Below are positions 415-14,040 of a stretch of DNA of 64,000 bases, in pieces; position 1 is the first letter of the stretch; each line of letters opens with the position of its first letter. The position numbers and the translations under genes are program-made. The DNA is from a virus. The stretch spans positions 1 to 64,000 of IMG/VR virus record IMGVR_UViG_3300035698_032311; one strand, written 5' to 3'. Below the pieces are notes generated by a model. The model did not search any database and was not told the origin of the DNA. It saw only the letters and a program-made list of their open reading frames with translations.

Positions 415-426
415 AATAACAAAACT

Positions 427-759
427 ATGAAGAAATACTACGGTCACCCCAAATTTTACGAACTATTAGAGGAGATTAAAGAAATTCACAGCTCTAAAAA
501 CCACGATTACGCTAAAACAACAGATCCATTTTCTAATCTAAAAATGTGCGAGGAGATTTATGTCAAGTGTCCACACTGTAAAAAATCACACCCTATTCCG
601 GCTCATATAGGAACTCTTATAAGAATGTCAGATAAATGGTCAAGATTAATTCAGCTCACTAAAAAAGAAGGCAAGAATGAAAGTGTAAGAGATAGCCTTA
701 TGGACTTAGCAGTATATTCGCTATTAAGAATAATACTTTTAGAAGAAGAAAAAAAATGA
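427..759 (+). CDS. small nucleotide-metabolism-associated protein (DUF1599/MazG-like guess)
   Basis: 110 aa; motif HSSKNHDY…DSLMDLAVYSLL recalls DUF1599-type phage proteins; recognised from memory only. Confidence 0.3.
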   Translation: MKKYYGHPKFYELLEEIKEIHSSKNHDYAKTTDPFSNLKMCEEIYVKCPHCKKSHPIPAHIGTLIRMSDKWSRLIQLTKKEGKNESVRDSLMDLAVYSLLRIILLEEEKK

Positions 760-1241: not shown

Positions 1242-1329
1242 AAAAAAAAATCCAAAAAGAAAAAAAAGCAGAAAAAGACTAAAAGACTCAATTATTTCAA
1301 GGGTCCTAAGCAAAAAAATAAGTGAAGTT

Positions 1330-1617
1330 ATGAAAAAAATAAAAATAAAGCGAGTTTGCCATGATTGTGGCAAAGAACTCGTAATCAAAAACAAAAGAAT
1401 AATTGGGGGTAAACTTTTAGTGTATAAAGAAGGAGATAAAGAAATAAACATTTTAAAATGTAATGAATGTTTCAAGAAAAATCCTTCTTTGAATAATTTT
1501 AGAAAATGCGAAGTTTATTCAAGGATTGTCGGTTATCTCAGGCCCGTTAAACAATGGAACATAGGAAAAAAACAAGAGTTTAAGGATCGAAAAAATTTCA
1601 ATATAAAAAATGAATAA
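1330..1617 (+). CDS. stand-alone NrdD C-terminal-like protein (zinc ribbon plus glycyl-radical motif)
   Basis: 95 aa; CHDCGK…(24 aa)…CNEC zinc ribbon, then SRIVGYLRPVKQWNIGKKQEFKDRKNF. This matches the class III RNR glycyl-radical tail pattern R-x-C/V-G-Y-L…(F/W)N-x-G-K-x-x-E…R. Confidence 0.5.
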   Translation: MKKIKIKRVCHDCGKELVIKNKRIIGGKLLVYKEGDKEINILKCNECFKKNPSLNNFRKCEVYSRIVGYLRPVKQWNIGKKQEFKDRKNFNIKNE

Positions 1618-1737
1618 AAATAAACGCAGGCAACGGACCCGCCGAAATAAGAAAAAGAGAAAAAGAGCAAAGAAAAAAATGAATTGCAAAAAAACTGAAT
1701 TTAAAATATCGTAGTAGAAGTAGAAAAAAATTAAAAT

Positions 1738-1808
1738 TCCGAAGTAATGTAATGGTCGCATAGGAGACTTTGATCCTCCTAATCTAGGTTCGAATCCTAG
1801 CTTCGGAG
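1738..1808 (+). tRNA. tRNA-Gln (anticodon TTG)
   Basis: Manual cloverleaf: acceptor tccgaag/cttcgga, T-arm ctagg-ttcgaat-cctag, anticodon loop ctTTGat. Confidence 0.55.
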
Positions 1809-1813
1809 CATAT

Positions 1814-1888
1814 TCCAACGTGGACAAGCAGTATGTCGTCTGTCTCATAAGCAGAAAATCGTAGGTGCAATTCCTACCGTTGGAACCA
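1814..1888 (+). tRNA. tRNA-Met/Ile2-type (anticodon CAT), CCA encoded
   Basis: Acceptor tccaacg/cgttgga plus A plus CCA; anticodon arm tctgt-ctCATaa-gcaga; T-arm gtagg-tgcaatt-cctac. Confidence 0.6.
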
Positions 1889-1889
1889 T

Positions 1890-1975
1890 GGAAGATTGTC
1901 GGGGAAATGGCTATCCCACCTCTCTTGAAAAGAGGAGCTGTAAAAGGCGTGTAGGTTCGAGTCCTACATCTTCCG
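1890..1975 (+). tRNA. tRNA-Ser (anticodon TGA)
   Basis: 86 nt with long variable arm; anticodon arm cctct-ctTGAaa-agagg; T-arm gtagg-ttcgagt-cctac; acceptor ggaagat/atcttcc. Confidence 0.65.
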
Positions 1976-2003
1976 CAGCAAGTAAGTGTGTTGTCTGTTG
2001 TAC

Positions 2004-2089
2004 GGAAGAATATCCAAAATGGACAAGGAAGCGGTTTGCTAAACCGTAAAGGGTAAAAACCTTTGTAGGTTCGAGTCCTACTTCTTCCG
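2004..2089 (+). tRNA. tRNA-Ser (anticodon GCT)
   Basis: 86 nt; anticodon arm gcggt-ttGCTaa-accgt; long variable stem aaaggg/cctttg; T-arm gtagg-ttcgagt-cctac. Confidence 0.6.
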
Positions 2090-2212
2090 CCTATGTTTTT
2101 AATACCAAGTGACATACCTCTATTATTAGAGGCATTAAAGGAAAAAGGATTTATAACTAAAAAAGAATTGATTAGCTATTTAATTAGTTTCTTAATTCGT
2201 TTAATATAAATA

Positions 2213-2286
2213 AGCCAATGTAGCTCAATTTGGCAGAGCAGTTGCTTTGTAAGCATCAGGTTGGGGGTTCGATGCCCTTCATTGGC
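2213..2286 (+). tRNA. tRNA-Thr (anticodon TGT)
   Basis: Acceptor gccaatg/cattggc; D-arm gctc..gagc; anticodon loop ttTGTaa; T-loop ttcgatg. Confidence 0.5.
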
Positions 2287-2292
2287 TCATAT

Positions 2293-2365
2293 ACTACCCT
2301 GTCCTAATTGGCAAAGGAGAAAGTCTTAGACACTTTTTATCTGGGTTCGAGTCCCAGGGGTAGTA
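2293..2365 (+). tRNA. tRNA with Leu-type anticodon TAG but short (4-nt) variable loop
   Basis: Acceptor actaccc/gggtagt, D tcct..agga, anticodon arm aaagt-ctTAGac-acttt, T-arm ctggg-ttcgagt-cccag, discriminator A. Confidence 0.45.
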
Positions 2366-2371
2366 CTATAT

Positions 2372-2444
2372 GTGCCAGTAGCCCAATGGCAGAGGCAACA
2401 GATTTAAGTCCTGTTCAGTGTAGGTTCGAATCCTACTTGGCACA
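2372..2444 (+). tRNA. tRNA with Leu-type anticodon TAA but short variable loop
   Basis: Acceptor gtgccag/ttggcac; anticodon arm acaga-ttTAAgt-cctgt (one A-C closing mismatch); T-arm gtagg-ttcgaat-cctac. Confidence 0.45.
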
Positions 2445-2450
2445 CAAAAT

Positions 2451-2525
2451 GCCACTATGATGCAATTTGGTAGACATATTAGTTTCAAAAACTAAAAATT
2501 GAAGGTTCGAATCCTTCTAGTGGCA
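2451..2525 (+). tRNA. tRNA with Leu-type anticodon CAA but short variable loop
   Basis: Acceptor gccacta/tagtggc; anticodon arm ttagt-ttCAAaa-actaa; T-arm gaagg-ttcgaat-ccttc. Confidence 0.45.
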
Positions 2526-2531
2526 TATAAG

Positions 2532-2602
2532 GGCTTCATCTTCTAGTGGCAGGAAACAAGATTCTCAATCTTGTAACAAGAGTTCAATTCTCTTTGAAGC
2601 CA
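2532..2602 (+). tRNA. tRNA-Glu (anticodon CTC)
   Basis: Acceptor ggcttca/tgaagcc; anticodon arm caaga-ttCTCaa-tcttg; T-arm aagag-ttcaatt-ctctt. Confidence 0.55.
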
Positions 2603-2607
2603 CAAAT

Positions 2608-2678
2608 GACCTTATCAGCTAATGGCAGGCTAGAAGACTTTCATTCTTCCAATGTGGGTTCAACTCCCGCTAGGGTCG
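2608..2678 (+). tRNA. tRNA-Glu (anticodon TTC)
   Basis: Acceptor gacctta/tagggtc; anticodon arm gaaga-ctTTCat-tcttc; T-arm gtggg-ttcaact-cccgc. Confidence 0.55.
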
Positions 2679-2689
2679 CAAATAAAGAT

Positions 2690-2763
2690 GGGAATGTAGC
2701 TTAATAAGGCAGAGCAATTCTCTCTTAAAGAAAAGGTTAAAGGTTCGATTCCTTTCATTCCCA
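2690..2763 (+). tRNA. tRNA-Lys (anticodon CTT)
   Basis: Acceptor gggaatg/cattccc; D gctt..gagc; anticodon loop ctCTTaa; T-arm aaagg-ttcgatt-ccttt. Confidence 0.5.
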
Positions 2764-2773
2764 CTATTGAAGA

Positions 2774-2845
2774 TGGCTTATAGTTCAACGGTAGAACACT
2801 TCTCTGATAAAGAAGAAGTTATAGGTTCAATTCCTATTAAGCCAA
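2774..2845 (+). tRNA. tRNA-Ile (anticodon GAT)
   Basis: Acceptor tggctta/taagcca; D gttc..gaac; anticodon arm cttct-ctGATaa-agaag; T-arm atagg-ttcaatt-cctat. Confidence 0.6.
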
Positions 2846-2959
2846 CAATATTTATTATTAGAATATATAAATAAATGAATTGTAAGAGGTTGCCGATTAA
2901 TAAGGCAAAATAAATTTTCAAAAGAAGATTTAATTGATAACTCTATATAATTCATAAAA

Positions 2960-3031
2960 ACCCCATTAACTCAACAGACAGAGTATTAGCCTTCGAAGCT
3001 AAAAATCTGGGTGCGAATCCTAGATGGGGTA
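2960..3031 (+). tRNA. tRNA-Arg (anticodon TCG)
   Basis: Acceptor accccat/atggggt; D actc..gagt; anticodon arm ttagc-ctTCGaa-gctaa; T-arm ctggg-tgcgaat-cctag. Confidence 0.55.
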
Positions 3032-3032
3032 C

Positions 3033-3104
3033 AGGGATATAGCTTAAAAGTAAAGCTCTATTCTTATAAAATAGAAGATATGGGTGCAAGTCCTATTATC
3101 CCTA
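3033..3104 (+). tRNA. tRNA-Ile (anticodon TAT, reads ATA)
   Basis: Acceptor agggata/tatccct; anticodon arm ctatt-ctTATaa-aatag; T-arm atggg-tgcaagt-cctat. Confidence 0.55.
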
Positions 3105-3110
3105 CTATAC

Positions 3111-3182
3111 TGCAGGGTCATCTAATCGGTAGGATATGAGATTCTGACTCTCATAATTTAGGTTCGAATCCTAATCCTGCAA
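3111..3182 (+). tRNA. tRNA-Gln (anticodon CTG)
   Basis: Acceptor tgcaggg/tcctgca; D atct..ggat; anticodon arm tgaga-ttCTGac-tctca; T-arm ttagg-ttcgaat-cctaa. Confidence 0.5.
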
Positions 3183-3187
3183 CATAA

Positions 3188-3261
3188 GGGAATATAACTC
3201 AATTTGGTAGAGTACCTGTCTTTTAAACAGGAGATTCTAGGTTCGATTCCTAGTATTCCCA
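3188..3261 (+). tRNA. tRNA-Lys (anticodon TTT)
   Basis: Acceptor gggaata/tattccc; anticodon arm cctgt-ctTTTaa-acagg; T-arm ctagg-ttcgatt-cctag. Confidence 0.65.
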
Positions 3262-3264
3262 CAC

Positions 3265-3405
3265 GGAGGCAGAAGACATTGGTCTGAAGCACATTGCAAA
3301 ATCTTATCTCATTCTAGTAGCGGGTAAGTGCGTGAAGTGTATCGATGAAAAAGAGACTTGCTAGAAGTTCTTGAGTAGTTGTTGGTTCAACTCCAACTGC
3401 TTCCA
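3265..3405 (+). tRNA. aberrant 141-nt tRNA-like locus (insertion-disrupted or degenerate tRNA)
   Basis: Perfect T-arm gttgg-ttcaact-ccaac followed by tgcttcc plus A. A 7-nt 5' partner ggaggca (6 WC plus 1 GU) lies 130 nt upstream. No canonical D or anticodon arm could be folded in between. Confidence 0.3.
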
Positions 3406-3454
3406 CAAAAACATGATTATAAAACTAACAATAATAAAGTATTAAAATTCAACA

Positions 3455-3525
3455 AGACCTAGTTACCGAGTAGTCAGGTGGGAGTCTGCAAAACTCTCTA
3501 CATAGGTGCAAATCCTATCTAGGTC
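3455..3525 (+). tRNA. tRNA-Cys (anticodon GCA)
   Basis: Acceptor gacctag/ctaggtc; anticodon arm ggagt-ctGCAaa-actct; T-arm atagg-tgcaaat-cctat. Confidence 0.55.
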
Positions 3526-3526
3526 T

Positions 3527-3817
3527 CATTTAGATATGATTGTGGCAGAATAGACGATAAACCAATATACCAAACGCAATAACTATTAGGCGAAGAAGGT
3601 GGCAAGTCATCTCCAGAGTTCTTGATACGCTTAATGGGAACTGAAGTTTGGTTGATAAGCAAAAAGAACCAGAAGCGATGTTGGTCTAAAAAGTATTGCA
3701 TTATGTTCTACCTGTAGCTGGTAATAAACCAGAAGTAAAAACTGTGAGGGAAGCGGTAGAGATACGCCTCACACTGTAGGGTGGAATATCGAGAATCCCT
3801 ACCAATCATATCTAAAT
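3527..3817. other. 291-bp element bounded by a perfect 15-bp terminal inverted repeat (MITE-like insertion or structured RNA)
   Basis: atttagatatgattg at 3527-3541 is the exact reverse complement of caatcatatctaaat at 3803-3817. The element sits precisely between tRNA-Cys and tRNA-Arg. The interior has an internal hairpin gtaggg…ccctac and no convincing ORF. Confidence 0.45.
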
Positions 3818-3820
3818 AAT

Positions 3821-3893
3821 ACCCCTGTCATCCAATTGGATAGGATACTGGTCTTCTAAACCTGAAATAGTGGTTCGAGTCCACTTGGGGGTA
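3821..3893 (+). tRNA. tRNA-Arg (anticodon TCT)
   Basis: Acceptor acccctg/tgggggt (two GU); D atcc..ggat; anticodon loop ctTCTaa; T-arm agtgg-ttcgagt-ccact. Confidence 0.5.
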
Positions 3894-3899
3894 CATTTT

Positions 3900-3971
3900 G
3901 CCAACGTAGCTCAATGGTAGAGCATTCGCTTGAAAAGCGAGGGGTAATAGGTCCAATTCCTATCGGTGGCA
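3900..3971 (+). tRNA. tRNA-Phe (anticodon GAA)
   Basis: Acceptor gccaacg/cggtggc; D gctc..gagc; anticodon arm ttcgc-ttGAAaa-gcgag; T-arm atagg-tccaatt-cctat. Confidence 0.55.
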
Positions 3972-4009
3972 CTGACAAAAATATTTAATTAGTATAAATA
4001 AACGATAAT

Positions 4010-4097
4010 GGCAAGGTGTGCCGAATGGTGAAGGCACTAGTCTGTAAAACTAGCACCCTAGTGGTAAACATTACAGGTTCGATTCCTGTCCTTGTCA
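4010..4097 (+). tRNA. tRNA-Tyr (anticodon GTA), class II
   Basis: 88 nt; acceptor ggcaagg/ccttgtc; D tgcc..ggca; anticodon arm ctagt-ctGTAaa-actag; long variable arm; T-arm acagg-ttcgatt-cctgt. Confidence 0.6.
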
Positions 4098-4102
4098 CAT
4101 AT

Positions 4103-4174
4103 TTCCGTGTAGTTTAACGGCAAAACAGCTGTGTTACATACAGAAGAGTGTAGGTTCAACTCCTATCACGGAAA
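4103..4174 (+). tRNA. tRNA-Val (anticodon TAC)
   Basis: Acceptor ttccgtg/cacggaa; D gttt..aaac; anticodon loop gtTACat; T-arm gtagg-ttcaact-cctat. Confidence 0.5.
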
Positions 4175-4193
4175 CAGTTGAATTAATTTTTAT

Positions 4194-4264
4194 TCCTCCG
4201 TAGTATAATGGTAATACACTTCTCTGTTAAAGAAGAATTAGCGGTTCGAATCCACTCGGAGGAG
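4194..4264 (+). tRNA. tRNA-Asn (anticodon GTT)
   Basis: Acceptor tcctccg/cggagga; D gtat..atac; anticodon arm cttct-ctGTTaa-agaag; T-loop ttcgaat. Confidence 0.6.
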
Positions 4265-4391
4265 CTAAATAGTATATCTTTCATTTTAATAGTAGTACCT
4301 ATGTACAAAAACGTCTAAATATGATATAATATACTTATAAAGGTCAAAAATATCAATAAAGGTCAATTTAATATAAAAATAAAATAAGACA

Positions 4392-4748
4392 ATGACTAAC
4401 AATACAACAAAAGAAGAAAAATGGGAAGAAGTTAAACCTGGAATTTGGGATTATGTAAATGAGCCAATCTTAATTGGAAATCTCATTGAAATAAAAACTA
4501 ACGTAGGTCCAAATTCATCAAAATTATATACTATTCAGAAAGATGATGACACTTTACTTTCAGTTTGGGGCACTACAATATTAGATGCAAGACTTCAATT
4601 TGTTACTGTTGGAGAGAGAGTTAAAGTTGAATTTACAGGAAAGGGTACACCTAAACCAGGTCGAAAGCCAACATTACTTTTTACAGTATATCATTCTTTA
4701 GCAAAACACGAAGAAAATTTATTAGAAGAAGACGTTCAACTTGATTAG
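4392..4748 (+). CDS. hypothetical protein
   Basis: 118-aa ORF immediately after the tRNA array; no recognisable motif. Confidence 0.35.
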   Translation: MTNNTTKEEKWEEVKPGIWDYVNEPILIGNLIEIKTNVGPNSSKLYTIQKDDDTLLSVWGTTILDARLQFVTVGERVKVEFTGKGTPKPGRKPTLLFTVYHSLAKHEENLLEEDVQLD

Positions 4749-4977
4749 TATGAAGAAACAAATTAATGAAAGAATATTAAAAACATATGGAAGTGTAATA
4801 ATTTCAAGACGTCAGGGGATACTTTTAGCAAAAAAGTTGAAAGATGAAGGTGATATTCGATTAATATTAATTGGAGGTGTAGAAGGAATTGAAGACAAGC
4901 CGACTCATACTGATGGAATGTTAGATTGTTATTTTAAAGTAAAAATGGTCAGAGTTGAAAGTATTAAACCGTGTTAA
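4741..4977 (+). CDS. hypothetical protein
   Basis: 78-aa ORF, overlaps neighbours by a few nt (operon-like). Confidence 0.3.
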   Translation: MISMKKQINERILKTYGSVIISRRQGILLAKKLKDEGDIRLILIGGVEGIEDKPTHTDGMLDCYFKVKMVRVESIKPC

Positions 4978-5182
4978 TAAAATGAAAAATAATTTAAAAC
5001 AAAATTCTCAGCAATTATTGAAACTTTCAGAAGTTGCAAAATATCTTCGTGTTAGTATGAGAACAGTATATAGATATATTTTATCTGGTAAATTAAAAGC
5101 TCATAAAATGCCTGCATGGAGAGTAAAAAAAGCAGATTTAAATACTTTTTTAGATAAATGTGCTAACTATGAAACCAAATAA
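4955..5182 (+). CDS. HTH DNA-binding protein, excisionase/AlpA/MerR-like
   Basis: LLKLSEVAKYLRVSMRTVYRYILSGKLKAHKM..WRV.KADL is a typical helix-turn-helix of the excisionase (HTH_17-type) family. Confidence 0.5.
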   Translation: MKVLNRVNKMKNNLKQNSQQLLKLSEVAKYLRVSMRTVYRYILSGKLKAHKMPAWRVKKADLNTFLDKCANYETK

Positions 5183-5354
5183 AGAAGTGATTAAAACACA
5201 AATTTCAAATCAATTAAAACTTCATTGGTTTTGGCTTAAAAAATTAGAAGATAAAGATATTATTGTTTTTATAAATTGGACTATTGATACATGGTGGAAT
5301 GGAGAACCCAAGATAAAAGCAAGAACTTTAAGAGAAAATATTAGCATTAAATGA
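5160..5354 (+). CDS. hypothetical protein
   Basis: 64-aa ORF. Confidence 0.25.
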   Translation: MLTMKPNKEVIKTQISNQLKLHWFWLKKLEDKDIIVFINWTIDTWWNGEPKIKARTLRENISIK

Positions 5355-5412
5355 AATCTAAAAGATTAAAATATATTCTATTGAGTAAAAAGAATATTAC
5401 TCTTAACAAAAT

Positions 5413-5604
5413 ATGCCAACAAGTAATTCAATATATAAAGGTAAAGGAGTTCGAATAGAATCAGATAAATATGAAAGTTGGTATGGTTGGAGAAAAGATA
5501 AAAAATCTGAAAGGTCGAAAAGTTGGCGTAAAAGACAAAGTCAAAGTGCTTATAAATACCATAAAAAAATACGAAAACAAAAAGTAATAGATCATGACAT
5601 ATAA
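5413..5604 (+). CDS. small highly basic protein
   Basis: 63 aa, K/R-rich (…RKDKKSERSKSWRKRQSQSAYKYHKKIRKQ…). Confidence 0.3.
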   Translation: MPTSNSIYKGKGVRIESDKYESWYGWRKDKKSERSKSWRKRQSQSAYKYHKKIRKQKVIDHDI

Positions 5605-5812
5605 ACAACGACTTAGACAAATAAAAATTACATTGAAAAGACCATATCATGTATTTACTCTTGCTCCAAGAGCACGCAGTGTTAAAGAAAGGATTTTAAT
5701 ATTAGAAGCAGCAAACAAAGAAGTTTTATCTTTTTCAGGTGAAAGCAGGTTCAGTTGTATAAAAGAAGCAGAAAAATATATCAAACAACTTAAAGACACT
5801 GGAAATCTATAA
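5594..5812 (+). CDS. hypothetical protein
   Basis: 72-aa ORF. Confidence 0.3.
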   Translation: MTYKQRLRQIKITLKRPYHVFTLAPRARSVKERILILEAANKEVLSFSGESRFSCIKEAEKYIKQLKDTGNL

Positions 5813-6031
5813 TTGTACTAACGACTTTCTGGCTTCGGCGAGAAAATACGTAGAAGGAGAAGGTTTAATTACTTTTTACGAAGTAAGGAACCATACATTC
5901 TTTTGGAAGGTTGAAATTTCTTTTAAGGAGGAATTTCCCTTCGGATAATTTTCTAACCGAGAGGTAGTATGGACTAGCTTTCTCCTTTAAATTTAAAAGT
6001 CGAAAAATATTAATTAACTTGTTATATTAGT

Positions 6032-6340
6032 ATGGAAGAAGAAAATAAAGTAGAAGAAGAAACTGAAGAATCTTTAGAAAATAAACCTGTTGATGAAGAA
6101 AAAGAAGAAGAATTAGAAGATGATGTTAAAGAAGGCACTGAAGACAAAGAAGAGGACGAAGAAGAGGATGATGAAGAAGAAGATGATGAAGAAGAAGACG
6201 AAAAAGAGGATGATGAAGAAGATGATGAAGAAGATGAAGAAGAGGATGAAGAAGAAGATGAAGAAGAAAGTGATGAAAAAGATGAAGAAGAAAGTGATGA
6301 AAAAGATGAAGAAGGGGATAAAAAAGAAGATGAAGAATAA
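6032..6340 (+). CDS. extremely acidic E/D-rich low-complexity protein
   Basis: 102 aa, >70% Glu/Asp (GAA/GAT repeats). Overlapping ORFs in other frames are repeat artefacts. Confidence 0.5.
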   Translation: MEEENKVEEETEESLENKPVDEEKEEELEDDVKEGTEDKEEDEEEDDEEEDDEEEDEKEDDEEDDEEDEEEDEEEDEEESDEKDEEESDEKDEEGDKKEDEE

Positions 6341-6345
6341 ATAGC

Positions 6346-6564
6346 ATGACACGAAAATATTGTGACATTTGTGGAAAAGAGATTGTGGCTGATTCTTTAT
6401 TTGGGTTATTAGTCAGGTTTGTAAAAACACCGTTTTTTGACAAGAAAACCCAAGTAATGGAAATGAAAGTGAAAGAAGAACATCTTGAGTTGTGTGAAAA
6501 ATGCACTGAGCAAATTTCACAAAAACTTTCTGAAATGAGTAAGAAAGTTAAAAAGGTCAAATAA
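6346..6564 (+). CDS. zinc-ribbon protein
   Basis: 72 aa with CDICGK…CEKC. Confidence 0.4.
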   Translation: MTRKYCDICGKEIVADSLFGLLVRFVKTPFFDKKTQVMEMKVKEEHLELCEKCTEQISQKLSEMSKKVKKVK

Positions 6565-6588
6565 AATTAATTAGAGTCATTAAAGACC

Positions 6589-6819
6589 ATGAAAAAAGTA
6601 AATAGGATTACTGTCGTTATCGGACGGTTTGGAATTGAACCCGAAAGTATTGAAATACCCAAAGGTTCTACTGTCAAAGAAGCATTAGAAGAAGCAGGCA
6701 TTGCTTTAGCCACTGGTGAAAAGGTTTATGTTGGAGGAGACAAAGCTACTTCTAAAGACATTTTAGACGATGGCGATGTAATTAATGTAGTCGGAAGTAA
6801 AGAAGGCGGGGTTCTTTAG
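6589..6819 (+). CDS. ubiquitin-like β-grasp protein (ThiS/MoaD-like) with C-terminal GG-VL
   Basis: 76 aa; ITVVIGRFG…EIPKGSTVKEALEEAGI…ILDDGDVINVVGSKEGGVL parallels ThiS/MoaD …DGDxI……GG. The diglycine is followed by a 2-residue tail. Confidence 0.5.
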   Translation: MKKVNRITVVIGRFGIEPESIEIPKGSTVKEALEEAGIALATGEKVYVGGDKATSKDILDDGDVINVVGSKEGGVL

Positions 6820-6869
6820 AGAATCGCGCCTTTTTTAAAGGTCGTTTAAGTTAAAACAGAAAAAAGATT

Positions 6870-7661
6870 ATGAATCCAAGAGATTTAAAAAAACTCGTTA
6901 TAGGAGTCGTTATCTTAGTATTGTTTTTACTTCTTAACCCCTTTGGTACAATTGGTGCAGGAGAAAGAGGTATTCGATTAAGGTTTGGTGCTGTAGTTGA
7001 TGAGATACTAAACGAAGGTTTATATTTTAGAATACCTTTTGTTGAAGTAGTTAAAAGAATAGATGTAAAGATTCAAAAAGAACAAGTAAAAGCAACTGCT
7101 GCATCTAAAGATTTACAGGAAGTTACTTCTGTTGTGGCTTTGAATTTTCATCTTGATCCAAATAAAGTAACAACAATATATCAAGAAGTCGGAATTGACT
7201 ACGATGATAGAATTATTGCACCTGCTATCCAAGAATCAGTTAAAGCTTCTACTGCTCAATTCACAGCAGAAGAATTGATTACTAAAAGAGCTGAAGTCAG
7301 AGAAAAAATTAGAATTATATTAATAGGAAAAATTGAAAAAAGAGGAATAATAGTTGATGACTTCAATATTATTGATTTAGACTTCTCGGCAGCATTTAAT
7401 AGAGCTATTGAAGCTAAAGTAACTGCAGAACAAGATGCATTAGCTGCTCAAAATAAGTTAGCACAAGTAGAATTTGAAGCAACACAAAAAGTGACCAAAG
7501 CTACTGCAGATGCAGAAGCAATTAGAATTCAGGCTCAAGCTATTACTCAGCAGGGTGGTAAAGATTATGTCCAATTACAAGCAATTGATAAATGGAATGG
7601 AATACTACCAGTAAATTGGTATGGTGGTTCAGTGCTTCCTTTTATAGATATCGGACACTAA
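6870..7661 (+). CDS. SPFH/band-7 (prohibitin/HflKC-like) membrane protein
   Basis: N-terminal TM segment, then GERGIRLRFGAVVDEILNEGLYFRIPFVEVVKRIDVKIQ and a long Ala/Gln-rich coiled coil, classic for the SPFH domain. Confidence 0.75.
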   Translation: MNPRDLKKLVIGVVILVLFLLLNPFGTIGAGERGIRLRFGAVVDEILNEGLYFRIPFVEVVKRIDVKIQKEQVKATAASKDLQEVTSVVALNFHLDPNKVTTIYQEVGIDYDDRIIAPAIQESVKASTAQFTAEELITKRAEVREKIRIILIGKIEKRGIIVDDFNIIDLDFSAAFNRAIEAKVTAEQDALAAQNKLAQVEFEATQKVTKATADAEAIRIQAQAITQQGGKDYVQLQAIDKWNGILPVNWYGGSVLPFIDIGH

Positions 7662-7662
7662 T

Positions 7663-7905
7663 ATGAAAAAAGGTTTTACAGTAATAGAACTTCTAGTAAC
7701 AATAGCAATTATCGGTACTTTGTTAGGAATTTTTATGGTTTCTTTACAAAATGCTAGAGAAAAAATAACAAATCCTGCTTATAAAGAATGTCAAGAAGAA
7801 GAAAACGAGTGTCGAAATGATTGCGCCAATTTTGCTGTAGATTTAAGTGATTGTCTTTTAAGATGCAATATTTTAAAAGAAAGTTGTTTAAACGTAATTG
7901 ATTAA
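7663..7905 (+). CDS. type IV pilin-like protein (prepilin-type N-terminal cleavage/methylation domain)
   Basis: MKKGFTVIELLVTIAIIGTLLGIFMV matches the G|FT(L/V)IEL prepilin peptidase site plus hydrophobic helix. Short Cys-rich C-terminus. Confidence 0.65.
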   Translation: MKKGFTVIELLVTIAIIGTLLGIFMVSLQNAREKITNPAYKECQEEENECRNDCANFAVDLSDCLLRCNILKESCLNVID

Positions 7906-7912
7906 TTATAGA

Positions 7913-8141
7913 GGCATAAGTAGTTCCTATTATATTTGCGATTTCAGGATCAAAAGTCTTGAAATTGCAAGCAACCTTATTACTACTCGCCTCTTAATAA
8001 AAAATAAAAGTGGCATAGGCAGTTCCTATTACAATTACATTTTGGATTTAAATACTGCCCGCCACCAACAGGAAAGTAGTTCAATGGTAGAACACAGGCT
8101 TAATTTACTTTTCGCTTTTAGCAAAAAAAGTTCCTATTATA
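7913..8141. repeat. three direct copies of an agttcctatta-containing repeat at about 100-bp spacing
   Basis: ggcataagtagttcctattata at 7913-7934 and ggcataggcagttcctattaca at 8012-8033 match 19/22; the agttcctattata core recurs at 8129-8141. Confidence 0.6.
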
Positions 8142-8183
8142 AACTGGGTGCCTGTGATGTAGGTTCGATTCCTACCTTTCCTA
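8070..8183 (+). tRNA. tRNA gene interrupted by a ~43-nt insertion in the anticodon loop (possible anticodon TGG, Pro, if spliced)
   Basis: Perfect acceptor aggaaag/ctttcct (7 WC), D-arm gttc-aatggta-gaac, T-arm gtagg-ttcgatt-cctac. The anticodon stem halves caggc (8095-8099) and gcctg (8150-8154) are separated by 50 nt instead of 7. The insert carries the third copy of the agttcctattata repeat. Confidence 0.45.
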
Positions 8184-8225
8184 CAAATATAAAAAGGTCA
8201 TATATTAATTTAACAAAGTAAATAC

Positions 8226-10190
8226 ATGAACACTTCAATTCTTAGGCTTTTTAAAGCTTTACCCATAAAAACTAAAAGAAAAAAAACCAACAAAGATTTG
8301 TTGATGAAAACCATCAAGAAAGGTTTTATATTTTCTCCAGAAGTTATTTATACTTATCCAAACTATATCAAGCTAATAGAAATGGTAGAAAAACTCTTTG
8401 GAATAACTGCTGAAAAATTAAATAGTTCTTTTCACAAATCTTGGGTTAAGGTAAAAAATGCTGATATAGAACAATTGGTAGTGGAACAAATAGCACACTA
8501 TTTGACAACATATGGTAAAGAGCAACCAAAAGAATATTTGATAGAAAAGGAAGTACAATGGGGTGTTAATCATTTAGCTGAAAAGATACTTGAATTGAAA
8601 GATTTTGAATCAAATAAAATTCAAGATGAAAATTATATTTATATTCCCAAAGAAAAGTTAGATATTCCTGAACTTGATATTGATGGAATAAAATTAGTAG
8701 TTATTAAAGGATATACTAAAAAAGAATTGAAAGAGAAGTTATTGAAACTGCTTGGTTTAGGAATAGCGTTAGGTGAAGATACAATAAAAGATGTGTTAAA
8801 TGTAGCTACTTTTGTTGAATTAAATGAAAAAGATTTAGAAAATATTAAAAATAAAGAAGTAAGAGTCACGCTTTATGATAATTTGAATTTGTTGCCGGAA
8901 AGCCCTATTGAATTTTTGAGATTTGTTATTTATAAAGCAACAGATAAAACTCTTCTGATTAAAAGTTCTGTATTAATAAAAGAGATAAAAGAACATAAAA
9001 ATACCGGTATTACTAAACTTTTTACTGAATATAAACAAAAGTATGGATTAGAAAAACTAGCAGAAATATTTTATCGTTTTAAACCCCTTTTTCTAGCGTT
9101 CAGAATAAACAAAACATCAAAAAAGACAATAAATAAAATAAGAAGATTAGCTGTAAAGTACCACAAACCACTACCAGAAGATTATCTTAACAACATTACA
9201 TCCAAGTTGAAGAAAGGAGAAAAAGTAGGCAGTAATAAACTAAAAGAAGAACTGGACAAAGTTAACGTGTTTCGCAAGATTAGATTGGCTTATGCTTTGA
9301 AATTTAGAACAAAAGATGTTAAATCAATTTTGTACAAGATAAGGAATGGAAAAGGATATGCTACATCTTTCGATTTTATAAAGAAAGCAGGTGCCAAGAG
9401 AATATTAGACATTGTATTAGATTCAATTGTTAAAGATATTAGCAAAAATGTAAAGAACAAAAAAATCTATATTCCTGAACATATAACATATAGTTTGCCT
9501 GCAACTGAAAAACAATTTACAGGAAATTTTCCCTCAGGAACATTTGTATCAATTCCCAAAGATATGATTGTTGGTATTAGTTGGGCAAACGTAAACGGTG
9601 ATATGATTGACTTAGACTTATCTATGATTTCACCAACAACTGGTAAAATAGGTTGGGATGTGGGTTATAGAACAAAAAGTAAAAATATATTGTTCTCGGG
9701 AGATATAACAAATGCTCCTAATGGTGCTACAGAGTTGTTTTACATACAAAGACAAACTAAAAAAGCACTTATACTTCTTGTTAATTATTATAATTTTAAT
9801 GAAGACATAGAAGTTCCATTTAAAATAATTGTAGCTAAAGAAAAAACAGATGATTTTAAAGAAAATTATATGGTAAATCCTAACAATGTTATGTCTGTTG
9901 CTGAATCAAAAATCAATCAAAGAGAAAAAATATTAGGTTTATTGGTTACAACTTCTGATGAATGCAGATTTTATTTTACTGAAACATATATAGGTAAATC
10001 AATAACTTCTACTGGCTCAGATTTTGTAGAACACAGTAGAAAATATCTCTTTGATTTCTATGAAAATACTATTAGATTAGAAGATGTTTTGATAAAAGCG
10101 GGTGCTAAAATAGTTGATAAAGATAAAGCTGATATTGATTTATCACCAGAAAACTTAGAAAAAGATACTATATTAAATTTGCTAGTTTAA
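8226..10190 (+). CDS. large protein with C-terminal TerD-like (tellurite-resistance/Ca-binding) domain
   Basis: 654 aa; residues ~440-580 read GISWANVNGDMIDLDLSMIS…GKIGWDVGY…ILFSGDITNAPNGATELFYI…ILLVNYYN. This follows the TerD pattern GWDV…DLDLSa…SGDNLTG…E.I.I…A.vTIhd. Confidence 0.45.
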   Translation: MNTSILRLFKALPIKTKRKKTNKDLLMKTIKKGFIFSPEVIYTYPNYIKLIEMVEKLFGITAEKLNSSFHKSWVKVKNADIEQLVVEQIAHYLTTYGKEQPKEYLIEKEVQWGVNHLAEKILELKDFESNKIQDENYIYIPKEKLDIPELDIDGIKLVVIKGYTKKELKEKLLKLLGLGIALGEDTIKDVLNVATFVELNEKDLENIKNKEVRVTLYDNLNLLPESPIEFLRFVIYKATDKTLLIKSSVLIKEIKEHKNTGITKLFTEYKQKYGLEKLAEIFYRFKPLFLAFRINKTSKKTINKIRRLAVKYHKPLPEDYLNNITSKLKKGEKVGSNKLKEELDKVNVFRKIRLAYALKFRTKDVKSILYKIRNGKGYATSFDFIKKAGAKRILDIVLDSIVKDISKNVKNKKIYIPEHITYSLPATEKQFTGNFPSGTFVSIPKDMIVGISWANVNGDMIDLDLSMISPTTGKIGWDVGYRTKSKNILFSGDITNAPNGATELFYIQRQTKKALILLVNYYNFNEDIEVPFKIIVAKEKTDDFKENYMVNPNNVMSVAESKINQREKILGLLVTTSDECRFYFTETYIGKSITSTGSDFVEHSRKYLFDFYENTIRLEDVLIKAGAKIVDKDKADIDLSPENLEKDTILNLLV

Positions 10191-10212
10191 AGATTTAAAA
10201 GGATCAAGTAAG

Positions 10213-11109
10213 ATGAACAGTTGGTTTAAACAATATTATAATAAATGCATTCAAATTTTAGATGAAATGAGATCTAAAATTGAAAAAAAAGTTTCAAGAT
10301 TAAAAGAAGATATCGCATTTTATCTCGAAAGATCGACTAAAGCAACATTACGTTTGAGAGAACAACAAAAAATGGAAATGTTGTTTGAACAATTAAAAGT
10401 AGAAAAAGCTGCATTAGAAAAACTTAAAAAATACAGAAAAGAACTTGATACTAATGTTTTCATAAAAGAACAGTTTCTAAAATTGAAATCGCATCATAAA
10501 ATTGAAAAAGTATTATTCAGATTCGATAATAAAATTATTGATATTTACACAGAAGAATTAAAAGTTTCAGGATCAAGAATTGGAAAATTCAGAATATCTA
10601 TTGAATTAAATAATAGTACACCATTTAAAATTAAAAATTTAACATATAAAGTTAATGATAAGTTTGATCATTGGTTTGTTAAAAATGAAAAACCATGCTT
10701 TGGAAGCTGGCAACCTGTTGTTGATAAATATTTACAAACAGGACATGTCTTTTTATGTATTGACACATTAATTCATTTTTTATTATCAATAAAAGGCGAA
10801 CACGGTTTTTTAAAATCTAAAGATTGGCTTAAAAGTTTTACTGAACAAAAACATTATAAAAGTAACACAAATTCAGGTTATCTAACAGTTGATATGGAAA
10901 CTACTGTAAATGCGGGCGATTCATACTATCTTAATCATATTATGAGTAGAACAAGAGTTGGTCCTAGCATTTATGCTTCTGTGCCCGAAATAGCAACTAG
11001 TCCAAGAAATGTATACATGGCAGTATCTCCAGGATTTATAAATGAGTCACCTTCAACAACTAATATGCCTATAACAACATGGTTATATGACAATAATGCA
11101 GCTAGTTAA
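10213..11109 (+). CDS. hypothetical protein, coiled-coil N-terminus; weak E2/UBC-like patch
   Basis: 298 aa; HWFVKNEKPCFGSWQPVV…GHVFLCIDTLIHFLLSI loosely resembles the UBC HPN…C…W.P…LLSI order. Confidence 0.3.
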   Translation: MNSWFKQYYNKCIQILDEMRSKIEKKVSRLKEDIAFYLERSTKATLRLREQQKMEMLFEQLKVEKAALEKLKKYRKELDTNVFIKEQFLKLKSHHKIEKVLFRFDNKIIDIYTEELKVSGSRIGKFRISIELNNSTPFKIKNLTYKVNDKFDHWFVKNEKPCFGSWQPVVDKYLQTGHVFLCIDTLIHFLLSIKGEHGFLKSKDWLKSFTEQKHYKSNTNSGYLTVDMETTVNAGDSYYLNHIMSRTRVGPSIYASVPEIATSPRNVYMAVSPGFINESPSTTNMPITTWLYDNNAAS

Positions 11110-11111
11110 AT

Positions 11112-11777
11112 ATGAAATTAATATTTAATAAAAAAAGTTATCTCAAATTAAAATATTTCACTCGGAATGTAAATACAGAAATATCAGGATTGGGTGAAAG
11201 TGTGCTTGTTACACCCTCAATAATACGAGTTGATAATATAGAAATTTTTCCCCAAACATGTTCTTACGCAAGTACTCAATTAGACGAAGATATGTTAGCT
11301 AAGTTCTTACACAAGAGAACTGTAAATAATGAAGATGTTTCAAAATACAATATTTGGTGGCACTCACACAATGATTTTTCAACATTTTGGAGTGGTATAG
11401 ATGAAAATACCATTGAAACAACCACAAGCAATCCTTATTTAATTTCAATAGTTGTCAATAAAAAATTAGATTTTTTAGCTCGAATTGATATTTTCAAACC
11501 GATTAGATTAACCTTTTCATTAGACGTCTTATCACCCCTCAAAATTCGCAATAACCAAAAAATAAAAGAGTATTGCCTTCGAAGAATTAAAAAACATGTT
11601 AAAAGACCGAAAATATTTATTCCTCAAAATATTAAAAAACTTTCTCGATATCCAATATTTAAAGATTTTTTAGAAGAAAATAATATCCTTCAATTAAAAC
11701 CATATTCAAAATCAACTTTAGATGAAATAGATCGTTTTTTAGAAAGTGTGGGTATATATTATAAACATACTCTGTAA
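11112..11777 (+). CDS. JAB/MPN (JAMM) metallopeptidase
   Basis: Complete JAMM signature H-S-H-NDFSTFW-S-GI-D (HxHx7Sx2D) with upstream EISGLGES. Confidence 0.65.
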   Translation: MKLIFNKKSYLKLKYFTRNVNTEISGLGESVLVTPSIIRVDNIEIFPQTCSYASTQLDEDMLAKFLHKRTVNNEDVSKYNIWWHSHNDFSTFWSGIDENTIETTTSNPYLISIVVNKKLDFLARIDIFKPIRLTFSLDVLSPLKIRNNQKIKEYCLRRIKKHVKRPKIFIPQNIKKLSRYPIFKDFLEENNILQLKPYSKSTLDEIDRFLESVGIYYKHTL

Positions 11778-12452
11778 ATGTCTAAAAAAAATACTAAAAT
11801 AGATTATTCAAGGCAGAAAGACCTTTTTAATCCGATTCTTTTTCCAGAGGGTGTAAGTATTATAGGCTTAGGCACAATAGGCTCTAATGTTGCTTATTGT
11901 TTGGCACGATTAGGAATACACCATCTAAGCATTTGGGATCACGATATTGTCAATTTTGTAAATCTTCCGAGCCAAGCATATTCATATAGCGATGTTGGTA
12001 AATCTAAGACATTATCATTGGCAAAATCTTTAAAAAACTTTTTGAAGACAATTATTTTATATAATAATATTAAACCCAAGACAAAATTTACTTCAAAAGT
12101 AGATGTACATTTTATAGATCCAATTATTGTAATTGCAGTAGACAGTATGAAAGAAAGAGAAAAGCTCTGCAAAATACTAATAAAAAAGCAGAAAAAAAGC
12201 AATAAAAGGTTTGTCATTATTGATGGAAGAATTGGAGGTTCTCAAATTGAAATATATACAAGAACTAATCTTGAAAAATGGAAAAAAACCTTTTCTAAAT
12301 ATCCAGATCAAGATCCGTGCGGTGCTCGAAATATTTCTTATATTGGAACTATAATTGCAGGGCTTATTAGTAATCAAGTTAAAAGAATTCTTAAACATGA
12401 AGGAATCAAGCTTGATATTCTTTTTAATATAGATTCTTTACAACTTTTGTAA
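11778..12452 (+). CDS. E1-like ThiF/MoeB-family adenylyltransferase (Ubl-activating)
   Basis: DYSRQ…VSIIGLGTIGSNVAYCLARLGIHHLSIWDHDIVNFVNLPSQ…DVGKSKTLSLAKSLK is the diagnostic ThiF/MoeB/E1 Rossmann region; compact 224-aa form. Confidence 0.75.
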   Translation: MSKKNTKIDYSRQKDLFNPILFPEGVSIIGLGTIGSNVAYCLARLGIHHLSIWDHDIVNFVNLPSQAYSYSDVGKSKTLSLAKSLKNFLKTIILYNNIKPKTKFTSKVDVHFIDPIIVIAVDSMKEREKLCKILIKKQKKSNKRFVIIDGRIGGSQIEIYTRTNLEKWKKTFSKYPDQDPCGARNISYIGTIIAGLISNQVKRILKHEGIKLDILFNIDSLQLL

Positions 12453-12709
12453 TGCCTAATACTATTTTAAATTCTCAAGAACATAAAAAAAGACTTCTTA
12501 CTATAGCAGGTTATCTGCCTTCTCGTTCTGAATATAGAGAATTTTCTAATGTTCTTCATGTCGGTTCTCGTATCACTGAAACACATATTAGATATATGAC
12601 AATAGAAGAATTAAAATTTATGTTAATAGGAATTAAAAGGCGTCAAATTCAAGAACTAATTAATAAATTAGAAGAAGATATTCGTAAAATAGAAAACTAT
12701 GAAAGTTAA
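12452..12709 (+). CDS. hypothetical protein
   Basis: 85-aa ORF abutting the E1 stop. Confidence 0.3.
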   Translation: MPNTILNSQEHKKRLLTIAGYLPSRSEYREFSNVLHVGSRITETHIRYMTIEELKFMLIGIKRRQIQELINKLEEDIRKIENYES

Positions 12710-12989
12710 TGAAGTTTTAAAATTCAATAAAAATACATGGTTATCTGTCGATAAACACTGTTATTCAATTAGATATCCTTCTACTCAAACATATTATTAT
12801 GCATCGTTAAAAGATGCTCTTGAAGATCTTTATGAAGAAAGAAAAAAAGCTAGATTATCTGAAAAAAAATGTCAATGTCTTAAAGAAATAATTGAAAAAA
12901 TTGAAGAAATAAACATCGAAACAACAGAAGAAATTAATAAAGCTTTAAAAATATACCAGAAAAATGAAAAAAAGAAAAATAAAAAATAA
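12699..12989 (+). CDS. hypothetical protein
   Basis: 96-aa ORF, K/E-rich C-terminus. Confidence 0.3.
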   Translation: MKVNEVLKFNKNTWLSVDKHCYSIRYPSTQTYYYASLKDALEDLYEERKKARLSEKKCQCLKEIIEKIEEINIETTEEINKALKIYQKNEKKKNKK

Positions 12990-13161
12990 AAGAAAAAAAA
13001 TCAATACACTGCCAATTTTTCTAATCAGCGACATAAGATCTATTTTTACTAGAAATGCTGCTGTTTTTCCTCATGTCATTTTGACAGAAGAGGGTGCTAT
13101 CACGTTATTAAATAAAATTAATGAAATAATTAATTATTTAAATGAAAAAAACCAAACTTGA
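12964..13161 (+). CDS. hypothetical protein
   Basis: 65-aa ORF. Confidence 0.25.
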   Translation: MKKRKIKNKRKKINTLPIFLISDIRSIFTRNAAVFPHVILTEEGAITLLNKINEIINYLNEKNQT

Positions 13162-13981
13162 AGATTTAATTATCGGCTACGGCGAAATAGGTCGTGCACT
13201 TTATAAATTATTTAAGAGAAATGTAGAAGTTAATAATAAAATACCACAAGATTTACTTAAAAGTAATATTATACATCTTCCACACATATATGATAAATAT
13301 AACGACAAATATTCTGATTATTCAAAAATTAAGAAAGCCAGATTTATGCATGTTTGTTATCCATATAATCAGTATTTTGAAATAACATTAGTTAATTATA
13401 TTGCTAAAATTAATCCGTATGCTGTTATCATTCATAGCACAATACCAATTGGAACAACAAGAAGACTTAACACTAGTTTAATAAGAAACAGAATAATATT
13501 TCATTCGCCTGTTAGGGGTGTTCACCCCCATCTTAAAATAGCTTTTACAACTTTCATTAAATATTTAGGTGTAGATCCACGAACATCTAAAAATGTTATT
13601 AAAAATGTCAAAAAACATTTAAAACAATTAGGTATGAAAGTTAAAGTATTAAAGAGCGAAGAAACAGAGCTGGGAAAATTATTATCTACTTTTCAATATG
13701 GTCGTGACATATTATTAGCAGACGAACTATTTAAAATCTGCCGAAAATTTAAAGTAGATTATAATAATGTTATATTACATTTCAATAAAACTTACAATGA
13801 AGGTTATGCTAATCTCAATCTAAGTAAGTATTCACGGTCTTTATTGTTTCCTGATATTAAAAAAGGATTTGGAGGTCATTGTATTGTTCCTAATGCTGAT
13901 TTGTTAAAAAAAGCAGGTGTTTCTAACTATTATGTTAACAAAATAATAAAAACTGGCCAGAAATCTAAGAAAAGACATTAA
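13142..13981 (+). CDS. NAD-binding dehydrogenase, UDP-glucose/GDP-mannose-dehydrogenase-like (short form)
   Basis: N-terminal IIGYGEIGRALYKLF Rossmann motif; C-terminal GFGGHCIVPNADLL resembles the UDPGDH catalytic GxGGxC(F/L)xKD motif. Confidence 0.4.
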   Translation: MKKTKLEDLIIGYGEIGRALYKLFKRNVEVNNKIPQDLLKSNIIHLPHIYDKYNDKYSDYSKIKKARFMHVCYPYNQYFEITLVNYIAKINPYAVIIHSTIPIGTTRRLNTSLIRNRIIFHSPVRGVHPHLKIAFTTFIKYLGVDPRTSKNVIKNVKKHLKQLGMKVKVLKSEETELGKLLSTFQYGRDILLADELFKICRKFKVDYNNVILHFNKTYNEGYANLNLSKYSRSLLFPDIKKGFGGHCIVPNADLLKKAGVSNYYVNKIIKTGQKSKKRH

Positions 13982-13992
13982 AAGTATTGTTT

Positions 13993-14040
13993 AAAATGCC
14001 CAGAAGCATATCTAGAATGAGCCCTGAGGCATTTTTTATT
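13993..14040 (+). terminator. putative intrinsic terminator of the plus-strand operon
   Basis: aaaatgcc (13993-14000) pairs with ggcatttt (14028-14035), followed by TTTTTTATT. Confidence 0.35.

Follow-up and report, generated by a model that had tools for sequence, protein, structure and literature searches.

In the 64,000-nucleotide stretch analysed here (positions 1 to 64,000 of the IMG/VR virus record IMGVR_UViG_3300035698_032311, hereafter the window), we identified four plus-strand genes which together likely form a phage-encoded, working conjugation cascade for a ubiquitin-like protein (Ubl). They encode a Ubl precursor (6589..6819), an E2-like protein of a previously unannotated family, here called X (10213..11109), a JAMM/MPN+ metallopeptidase (JAB; 11112..11777) and a minimal E1-like adenylating enzyme (11778..12452). 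Sequence, profile and structure analysis support the identity of each component and show that the catalytic residues are conserved and the genes linked. All open reading frames (ORFs) marked in an initial annotation of this DNA were found in place, with the motifs quoted there.

Components of the cassette

The E1-like enzyme (224 aa) matches the Pfam family ThiF (PF00899) above its cut-off, with an expectation value (E) of 2.3e-17 and 63.4 bits (cut-off 28.1), which agrees with the ThiF/E1 Rossmann block initially recognised in this gene. It also matches the Cap2 E1 domain in PADLOC (E 4.4e-13). In a search of the Protein Data Bank (PDB), the family profile recovered UBA1, UBA6 and UBA5 (5e-16 to 1e-13), followed by ThiF (1e-11) and MoeB (2e-9). 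The sequence contains the GxGxxG and DxD motifs, Asp122 and a Cys (Cys181) in a PCGAR loop. G32, G35, D54, D56, D122, R127, D149-G-R151 and C181 show no variation among five homologues, one of which is gp76 of the phage crAss001. By its position, rather than by a structural alignment, we infer C181 to be equivalent to Cys184 of ThiF and Cys187 of MoeB. The enzyme has neither a rhodanese domain nor a ubiquitin-fold domain, and it lacks a four-Cys zinc site, since only three Cys are present in the sequence. A pattern-based search for E1 relatives in viral contigs gave matches to the patterns, none of which was confirmed.

The adjacent JAB gene encodes a protein of 221 aa. Its stretch HSHNDFSTFWSGID fits the JAMM pattern HxH-x7-S-xx-D perfectly and has a Glu upstream, so that the complete motif initially described here was found. 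The five homologues compared all have E23, H84, H86, S94 and D97. The single sequence reaches a sub-threshold score with Prok-JAB of Pfam (E 0.089; 13.1 bits vs. a cut-off of 25) and matches the JAB model of PADLOC, which is of the type of Cap3 from the cyclic oligonucleotide-based antiphage signalling system (CBASS), with an E of 8.6e-4. A profile of the five members recovered the archaeal Rpn11-like protein 6fjv (E 9.2e-6), CSN5 (5.4e-4), Rpn11 and PfJAMM1 (5lda_A) from the PDB. The closest solved relatives are JAMM enzymes, including deubiquitinases, which process or remove modifiers of the ubiquitin or SAMP type. The phage protein is predicted to act as both maturase and deconjugase of the Ubl.

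The Ubl precursor is a protein of 76 aa with a predicted single beta-grasp domain of the ThiS/MoaD/SAMP2 type, in accordance with the ThiS/MoaD-type assignment first made for it. The lone sequence gave sub-threshold Pfam matches only, nearly all of them to beta-grasp families (DUF348, Ub-Mut7C, SLBB, ThiS and RnfH). A profile of six family members (alignment A3) aligned end to end with PDB chains; the matches are weak, with SAMP2 (5lda_B) as the best (E 0.0048), followed by PF1061, MoaD, TtuB and ThiS. In this comparison, the conserved Gly of the phage family is aligned on the C-terminal Gly of SAMP2. Pfam ThiS is matched by three of the six members (E 1.3e-6 for the best orthologue), and one further phage locus, L013, carries a copy with a precomputed ThiS match. 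The AlphaFold2 model obtained from the single sequence shows the order beta-beta-alpha-beta at low confidence (predicted local distance difference test (pLDDT) 56). Taken together, this sequence-based evidence for a beta-grasp protein is convincing. The window protein and the Ubl of locus L005 gave no alignment with BLASTP; their kinship rests on the multiple alignment and the hidden Markov model (HMM).

The C-terminus of the Ubl reads ...GSKEGG-VL, in which Gly74 is predicted to be the conjugation residue and VL a removable tail. Across ten orthologues this Gly is invariant (10/10). It is the terminal residue in L005 and is followed by one to three variable residues in the others, the ends being ...[SP]K[EQ][GA]G and then VL, L, EGK, I, R, F, NN, SR, C or nothing. 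Such a constant Gly with short tails that differ between orthologues is the precursor signature expected where a peptidase must expose the Gly, and the need for this exposure would explain the constant presence of a JAMM gene. This pattern strengthens the proposal of the initial annotation that a short tail masks the diglycine until the JAMM peptidase matures the Ubl.

X (298 aa) had been listed as a possible E2. This assignment could be upgraded by an invariant Cys in all family members, by E2s at the top of the structural matches and by a pairing with the His and Cys of canonical E2s which scores above 40 controls. The protein consists of an N-terminal coiled-coil hairpin (residues ~3-92), a UBC-like core (~93-215) and a disordered C-terminal tail (~225-298). 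No model in Pfam, NCBIfam, PHROG or PADLOC covers it, and neither X by itself nor alignment A1 retrieved anything in word-index protein searches. The family was found only by an exhaustive HMMER search, which gave 116 cluster representatives at E<=1e-3 (clusters at 50% identity). In alignment A2, which contains 117 sequences including the window protein, Cys is present at position 162 in all 117, Gly at position 124 in 116, Thr at position 113 in 112 and His at position 153 in 111; position 154 is Trp in 63 sequences and Pro, forming an "HP" pair, in 43. The core motif of the family is DH[WP]xVxxxxPC[LF]GxW. H153 and C162 are nine residues apart, as in the HPN-type spacing of ~8-10 residues from His to Cys.

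With the alignment of 117 sequences, AlphaFold2 gave a model of X with pLDDT values >90 for residues 1-215. It shows a long helical hairpin (3-78), a helix (81-92), a beta-meander (97-153), helices which start just after Cys162 and a disordered tail (225-294). In a Foldseek search of the PDB with this model, E2s rank first. UBE2J2 was found with a probability of 0.93 over 137 columns and a target-normalised TM-score (template modelling score) of 0.47, and further E2 matches are Rad6b, Ube2g2, Ube2e2, UbcA1, the CdnG-associated E2 of CBASS (8yjy_B) and UFC1. Alignment of the X core (90-218) with five canonical E2s by hhalign gave P 5.5e-4 over 118 columns. It places IGxFxI of X on the GGxFxL strand of the E2s, His153 on the His of the HPN motif and Cys162 on the catalytic Cys85 of UBE2D2. 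The score of 25.6 compares with 8.0-16.8 for the 40 controls, which were reversed sequences, unrelated families and column-shuffled E2 alignments. From sequence and model, X can be regarded with good but not complete confidence as a divergent E2-like family without an existing curated model. The full-length X profile gave only coiled-coil noise among PDB sequences. In 50,697 deposited phage genomes, BLAST detected homologues of neither X nor the Ubl. For X, 185,579 representative bacterial and archaeal genomes gave none or chance matches, in a scan whose DNA motif would catch only 15 of the 117 known members.

The disordered C-terminal tails of the X family vary widely and are rich in Ser, Thr and Trp in the clade of the window. 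In about eight of the 117 members the terminus is [ILVSC]P[FW], in most cases preceded by acidic residues (EDLPF, GEVPF, DDCPF), and in about eight further members it is a polyacidic stretch followed by an aromatic residue (DDDFF, DEDEF). Examples of such tails, both kinds taken together, are P0020, P0030, P0041, P0046, P0085, P0112, P0037 and P0032. These acidic/aromatic tails resemble the C-terminal tails of single-stranded DNA-binding protein (SSB) and T7 gp2.5. By analogy, some X members might dock on the replisome or on SSB-client proteins through them.

Gene linkage and genomic context

For the analysis of linkage, the same HMMs of the four families were used to annotate the window and 11 other loci (L005 to L015), gathered via homologues of E1 or X. 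No sequence from L012, L013, L014 and L015 had entered the Ubl, JAB and E1 HMMs by which these genes were detected. In 11 of the 11 other loci, the neighbours of X or of the close E1 homologue were drawn from the same four families. All four genes are present wherever the sequence suffices, i.e., in the window, L005, L008, L011 and L015. The commonest order, Ubl, X, JAB, E1, is found in L008 and in L015, a 44-kb contig with a terminase small subunit. It is also found in L011, a 129-kb IMG/VR phage, with a small Zn-ribbon ORF inserted between X and JAB. L005 has the order X, JAB, E1, Ubl, and L012 carries a C-terminal fragment of Ubl followed by X, JAB and E1. L009 contains an E1 fragment, Ubl and X; L014 contains X, a 66-aa ORF and JAB; L006 contains JAB and E1. 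In L007 and L013, Ubl and X are followed by the end of the contig. In L010, two tandem X paralogues (2356-3474 and 3477-3923) are located 3' of a single Ubl gene. The Ubl gene adjoins E2, JAB or E1 genes in L005, L007-L011, L013 and L015, and JAB is directly 5' of E1 in the window, L005, L006, L008, L011, L012, L015 and crAss001. In the window, the E2-like and JAB genes are separated by 2 nt on the same strand, and JAB and E1 are adjacent. The grouping of the four genes is not due to chance. Its relatives are carried by phage-like contigs.

L008 and L011 also share the ORFs upstream of the cassette in the window, namely an ORF of 72-88 aa and a Zn-ribbon ORF, and the cassette is syntenic in these three loci. 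The upstream Zn-ribbon ORF was considered as a further component or an E3-like adaptor and rejected, because it is kept only in these three closest loci and thus reflects synteny of the lineage. At the place of the additional Zn-ribbon ORF of L011 (CPHC...CDEC), between E2 and JAB, L014 has its 66-aa ORF, which is a different one. In L011, this Zn-ribbon ORF and the flanking ORFs noted here are at 4539-5753, 8731-9054 and 12139-13599. Inspection by eye of the flanks suggests an RtcB RNA ligase-like protein and a TROVE/Ro60 plus vWA-like protein, which would be an RNA-repair neighbourhood.

The window region 6870-10190, located between the Ubl and E2-like genes, is an insertion, because the two genes adjoin directly in the relatives L008 and L011. 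It begins with a gene for an HflK/C-like SPFH/Band 7 protein (6870-7661, plus strand; Pfam Band_7 E 5.7e-32; PHROG 200 E 5e-46). Directly 3' of it lies the gene of an 80-aa prepilin-like protein with a Cys-rich C-terminus (7663-7905, plus strand), whose N-terminal methylation motif scores 24.9 bits (cut-off 21.2). An ORF of 107 aa and a gene for a 654-aa protein (8226-10190, plus strand) also belong to the region. The latter has full-length homologues in the Synechococcus phages S-CRM01 (g174; L002 6974-8815) and S-CBWM1 (gp22; L003 6977-8833) and in the gut phage Phass-1 (L004 6815-8761), with 25-28% identity and E down to 5e-59. The invariant motif of this family is DLDLS...SGDITNAPNGAxE. 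Its gene is located inside a large tRNA array in S-CRM01 and S-CBWM1, tRNA genes are found nearby in Phass-1, and the 22-tRNA array of the window lies 4 kb upstream. E1 or JAB genes were found near none of these three homologues. The fact that the homologues travel with tRNA arrays and without E1 or JAB provides independent support for placing the 654-aa gene outside the module. Judged from the sequences of the relatives, the SPFH, prepilin-like, 107-aa and 654-aa ORFs are an insertion and not part of the module. Of the SPFH, pilin-like and TerD-domain proteins which the initial annotation had seen as collinear with the cassette, the first two were recovered. For TerD no support was obtained, as the 654-aa protein matched nothing in Pfam, NCBIfam or the PDB sequences, TerD included, either as a single sequence or as a four-member profile.

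The window has a G+C content of ~30% and consists of a plus-strand block (~1-14,000) followed by a long minus-strand block. PHROG matches were obtained for tape-measure proteins (25323-27677), nucleotide kinases and a 790-aa fusion of prohead protease and major head protein (61541-63913, minus strand). The N-terminal prohead protease domain of this fusion is ~35% identical to proteases of T5-like Vibrio phages and is followed by major-head-like regions. The strand switch is marked by two ORFs, one SLT lysozyme-like and the other with a peptidoglycan-binding domain. The array of 22 tRNA genes (1738-4265, plus strand) covers 15 amino acids. It includes tRNA-Ile(TAT), isoacceptor pairs for Gln, Glu, Lys, Arg, Ser and Ile, and three isoacceptors for Leu. 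The tape-measure genes, the protease/head fusion, the other phage genes and the tRNA array confirm that the source of the window is a large tailed phage. No close relative was found among the 50,697 deposited phage genomes, and the protease domain of the fusion is the sole clear link to cultured phages. The cassette is located in the plus-strand early/accessory (replication) block, on the strand opposite to the structural genes. A scan for promoters and terminators gave counts at chance level and hence no operon boundaries.

Just 5' of the Zn-ribbon ORF and the Ubl gene, an ORF of 102 aa (6032-6340, plus strand) consists nearly completely of Glu and Asp (EEDDEEEDDEE...). The overlapping frame is a poly-Lys/Met ORF, and only one of the two can be real. 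The acidic product might be a DNA-mimic-like protein. On the 3' side of the cassette, a short protein of 279 aa similar to UDP-glucose/GDP-mannose dehydrogenases is encoded (13142-13981, plus strand). Its Pfam and NCBIfam matches are sub-threshold, and it matches PDC-S31 of PADLOC with an E of 7e-5. A counterpart is kept 3' of the cassette in L008 (6217-6957).

Proposed function of the cascade

The steps proposed here follow by analogy from the BilABCD anti-phage operons of bacteria, which occur as Types I and II (Hor et al., 2024; Chambers et al., 2024), from SAMP/JAMM1 and from the archaeal Rpn11-like ubiquitin-processing system. The JAMM peptidase would trim the tail of one to three residues (VL in the window) and free Gly74. 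Gly74 would be adenylated by the E1, after which the Ubl would be held as a thioester on Cys181 and handed on to Cys162 of the E2-like protein. X may then move the Ubl to lysines of the targets without a dedicated E3, and its coiled-coil hairpin and variable disordered tail likely set the choice of target or the oligomerisation. The JAMM peptidase could also reverse the modification.

Several points weigh against a working conjugation cascade. Each step of the mechanism is a prediction by analogy. The nearest named relatives of Ubl and E1 include the sulfur carriers ThiS, MoaD and TtuB as well as ThiF, which is also the top NCBIfam match of the E1, with all ThiF and MoeB scores far below the equivalog cut-offs. 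The Ubl gene of the window is 3.4 kb away from the other three genes, and L009 shows no JAB within the available sequence. For X, the best Foldseek E is 0.063 and none reaches 0.001, no E2 family of Pfam is matched by any of the 117 members, and a trimmed X core HMM recovered no E2 from the PDB sequences. The hhalign probability for X and the E2s is 30% (secondary structure not used), and the five canonical E2 sequences for this alignment were entered by hand.

As the cassette is located in the early/replication block and is syntenic in a lytic-phage lineage, it most likely tags proteins of the host or of rival phages in the course of infection, a metabolic role being less likely. For the full statement, that this lineage runs a complete and autonomous cascade by which host or rival-phage proteins are covalently tagged, we consider the chances to be evenly balanced.

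A narrower form of the tagging cascade would be a Bil-like exclusion system carried by the phage as defence cargo, in which structural proteins of superinfecting rivals are tagged and their assembly is blocked. The set and order of components match BilABCD, whose only known function is the tagging of central tail fibres of phages. The highly variable C-terminal tails of X would be expected of fast-evolving target recognition, and the tandem E2 paralogues of L010 point in the same direction. However, the phage would need to spare its own tail. In addition, the syntenic position and the conserved flanks in the window, L008 and L011 fit a core function of the lineage better, which is a mild argument against mobile cargo, and the cassette was not found in the 50,697 deposited phages or in low-sensitivity scans of bacterial genomes. 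We therefore regard exclusion of rivals as a rather unlikely special case.

Sabotage of a host Bil, Bub or type II CBASS Cap2/Cap3 system seems less probable still. Here, the JAMM peptidase would strip conjugates, and Ubl, E1 and E2 would act as decoys. The cassette is phage-borne and located in the early region, its E1 matches the Cap2 E1 domain and its JAB the Cap3-type models of PADLOC. Moreover, tail proteins of phages are substrates of Bil conjugation, which exposes phages to selection for countermeasures. For stripping, however, a lone deconjugase would do, whereas four activities are co-conserved here with intact catalytic residues, which suggests a complete autonomous cascade. PADLOC 2.0.0 gave no match for the phage Ubl or E2, the presence of Bil- or ISG15-like models in it being unconfirmed, and no Bil, Bub or Cap chain is among the PDB matches listed for the Ubl and JAB profiles.

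TtuB/TtuC, Urm1/Uba4 and SAMP2 serve tRNA thiolation, and Mec+ matures CysO. Sulfur transfer was named as an alternative in the initial annotation. In such a role, the E1-adenylated Ubl would be converted to a thiocarboxylate for thiolation of the many phage tRNAs or for the modification of cofactors or nucleotides, and the JAMM peptidase would only mature the carrier. Operons of E1, JAB and Ubl for sulfur transfer are established (Iyer et al., 2006), the best PDB matches of the Ubl profile (SAMP2, MoaD, TtuB and ThiS) are sulfur carriers or dual-function proteins, the best NCBIfam matches of the E1 are of the ThiF type, and the 22-tRNA array is located 2.3 kb upstream. The context nevertheless gives no support and makes this role very improbable, as no PP-loop motif was found in the window, L005, L008, L009, L010, L011 and L015, a scan of the neighbouring ORFs revealed no ThiG, MoaE or CysM, the E1 is without a rhodanese domain and stays far below the ThiF/MoeB equivalog cut-offs, the JAB is closest to deubiquitinase-type JAMMs, and an E2-like partner with an invariant Cys, which known carrier systems lack, is obligately linked here.

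Comparison with known systems

The resemblance to Bil, which had already been noticed in the initial annotation, extends to the gene order in relatives of the phage cassette. For this comparison the preprint versions of the two Bil studies were used (Hor et al., 2024; Chambers et al., 2024). In both systems, the four activities are encoded by separate genes, and the order Ubl-E2-JAB-E1 of L008, L011 and L015 corresponds to BilA-B-C-D. Both have a Ubl with an obligatory C-terminal Gly, sometimes followed by a short overhang, and no E3. Overhangs of 2-9 residues after the Gly are present in some BilA homologues (Hor et al., 2024; Chambers et al., 2024). No ubiquitin-fold domain is present in the E1 of either system, and a disordered region of the E2 is proposed for target recognition. 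In contrast to Bil, which is a bacterial chromosomal operon, the cassette described here is located in the genome of a lytic tailed phage. BilA contains one to three ubiquitin-like domains, whereas the phage Ubl is predicted to be a single beta-grasp domain of 76 aa of the ThiS/MoaD/SAMP type. The phage E2 belongs to a separate, unannotated family with an N-terminal coiled-coil hairpin of ~90 aa, and the four-Cys zinc site of BilD has no equivalent in the phage E1, with its three Cys. The Ubl and E2 profiles matched no Bil chain in the PDB.

In the SAMP and Caldiarchaeum systems, the modifier is a small beta-grasp protein ending in Gly-Gly, and a JAMM enzyme is responsible both for its maturation and for its removal. 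The phage cassette resembles SAMP/UbaA/JAMM1 and the Caldiarchaeum system of ubiquitin, E1, E2 and Rpn11-like protein in that its Ubl is nearest to SAMP2 (E 0.005) and its JAB to the Caldiarchaeum Rpn11-like protein (9e-6) and PfJAMM1; these relationships are distant and were obtained with small profiles. The PDB entry 5lda, matched by both families, is the crystal complex of JAMM1 with SAMP2. In contrast to the phage cassette, SAMPylation proceeds without an E2, the archaeal systems are cellular and SAMPs double as sulfur carriers. Likeness to type II CBASS is seen for the E1 (Cap2 E1 domain, 4.4e-13), the JAB (Cap3-type, 8.6e-4) and the E2 (8yjy_B among the Foldseek matches of X). CBASS differs in having no separate Ubl, since the C-terminus of the CD-NTase is conjugated, and in its fused E1/E2; neither a CD-NTase nor an effector is present in the window.

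Among phages, the lambdoid and T1-like gpI (Ubl) and gpK (JAB + NlpC/P60) also represent a beta-grasp Ubl with a conserved Gly and a JAB (Iyer et al., 2006). They occur without E1 or E2 and in the tail module, in contrast to the cassette in the early/replication block of the window. In crAss-like Bacteroides phages such as crAss001 (L001), the adjacent genes of gp77 (JAB; 4244-5494) and gp76 (ThiF; 5491-6648) are located in the replication region of a lytic phage, beside primase and uracil-DNA glycosylase (UDG), and HSHNNMATFFSGTD as well as the Cys of the E1 are conserved. With 416 aa and 385 aa, gp77 and gp76 are much larger than the JAB and E1 of the window. No similarity to X and Ubl was detected by BLASTP or hhalign for gp78 and gp79, which were considered as their counterparts, and no Ubl or E2 partner was identified for the crAss-like pair. 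A function of Ubl type or based on adenylation is probably overlooked by the present labels of gp77 and gp76, "metalloprotease" and "thiamine biosynthesis protein ThiF". The pair may call for a new interpretation along the lines of the window cassette.

For phage-encoded E1/E2/JAB/Ubl cassettes, the literature covered, with subscription journals thinly represented, gave only the bacterial systems and lambdoid gpI/gpK. To our knowledge, the only demonstrated role of Ubl conjugation in prokaryotes is that of an anti-phage weapon of bacteria (Bil, Bub and type II CBASS). With a complete cassette conserved in lytic phages, protein tagging would prove to be a tool of bacterial viruses as well, comparable to the use of host ubiquitin by eukaryotic viruses. 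If the proposed function is true, it would be the first full pathway of E1, E2, Ubl and deubiquitinase in a prokaryotic virus and the mirror image of the Bil defence, and it would raise the question of whether, and in which direction, such systems moved between phages and hosts. With a Ubl of 76 aa, an E1 of 224 aa, a JAMM peptidase of 221 aa and one E2, the set is compact and makes the rules of E3-independent target choice approachable, and the X family could now be named and searched for. While the parts list and its order are known from Bil, a phage-encoded cassette of Ubl, E2, JAMM and E1 with a previously unannotated E2-like family appears to be new.

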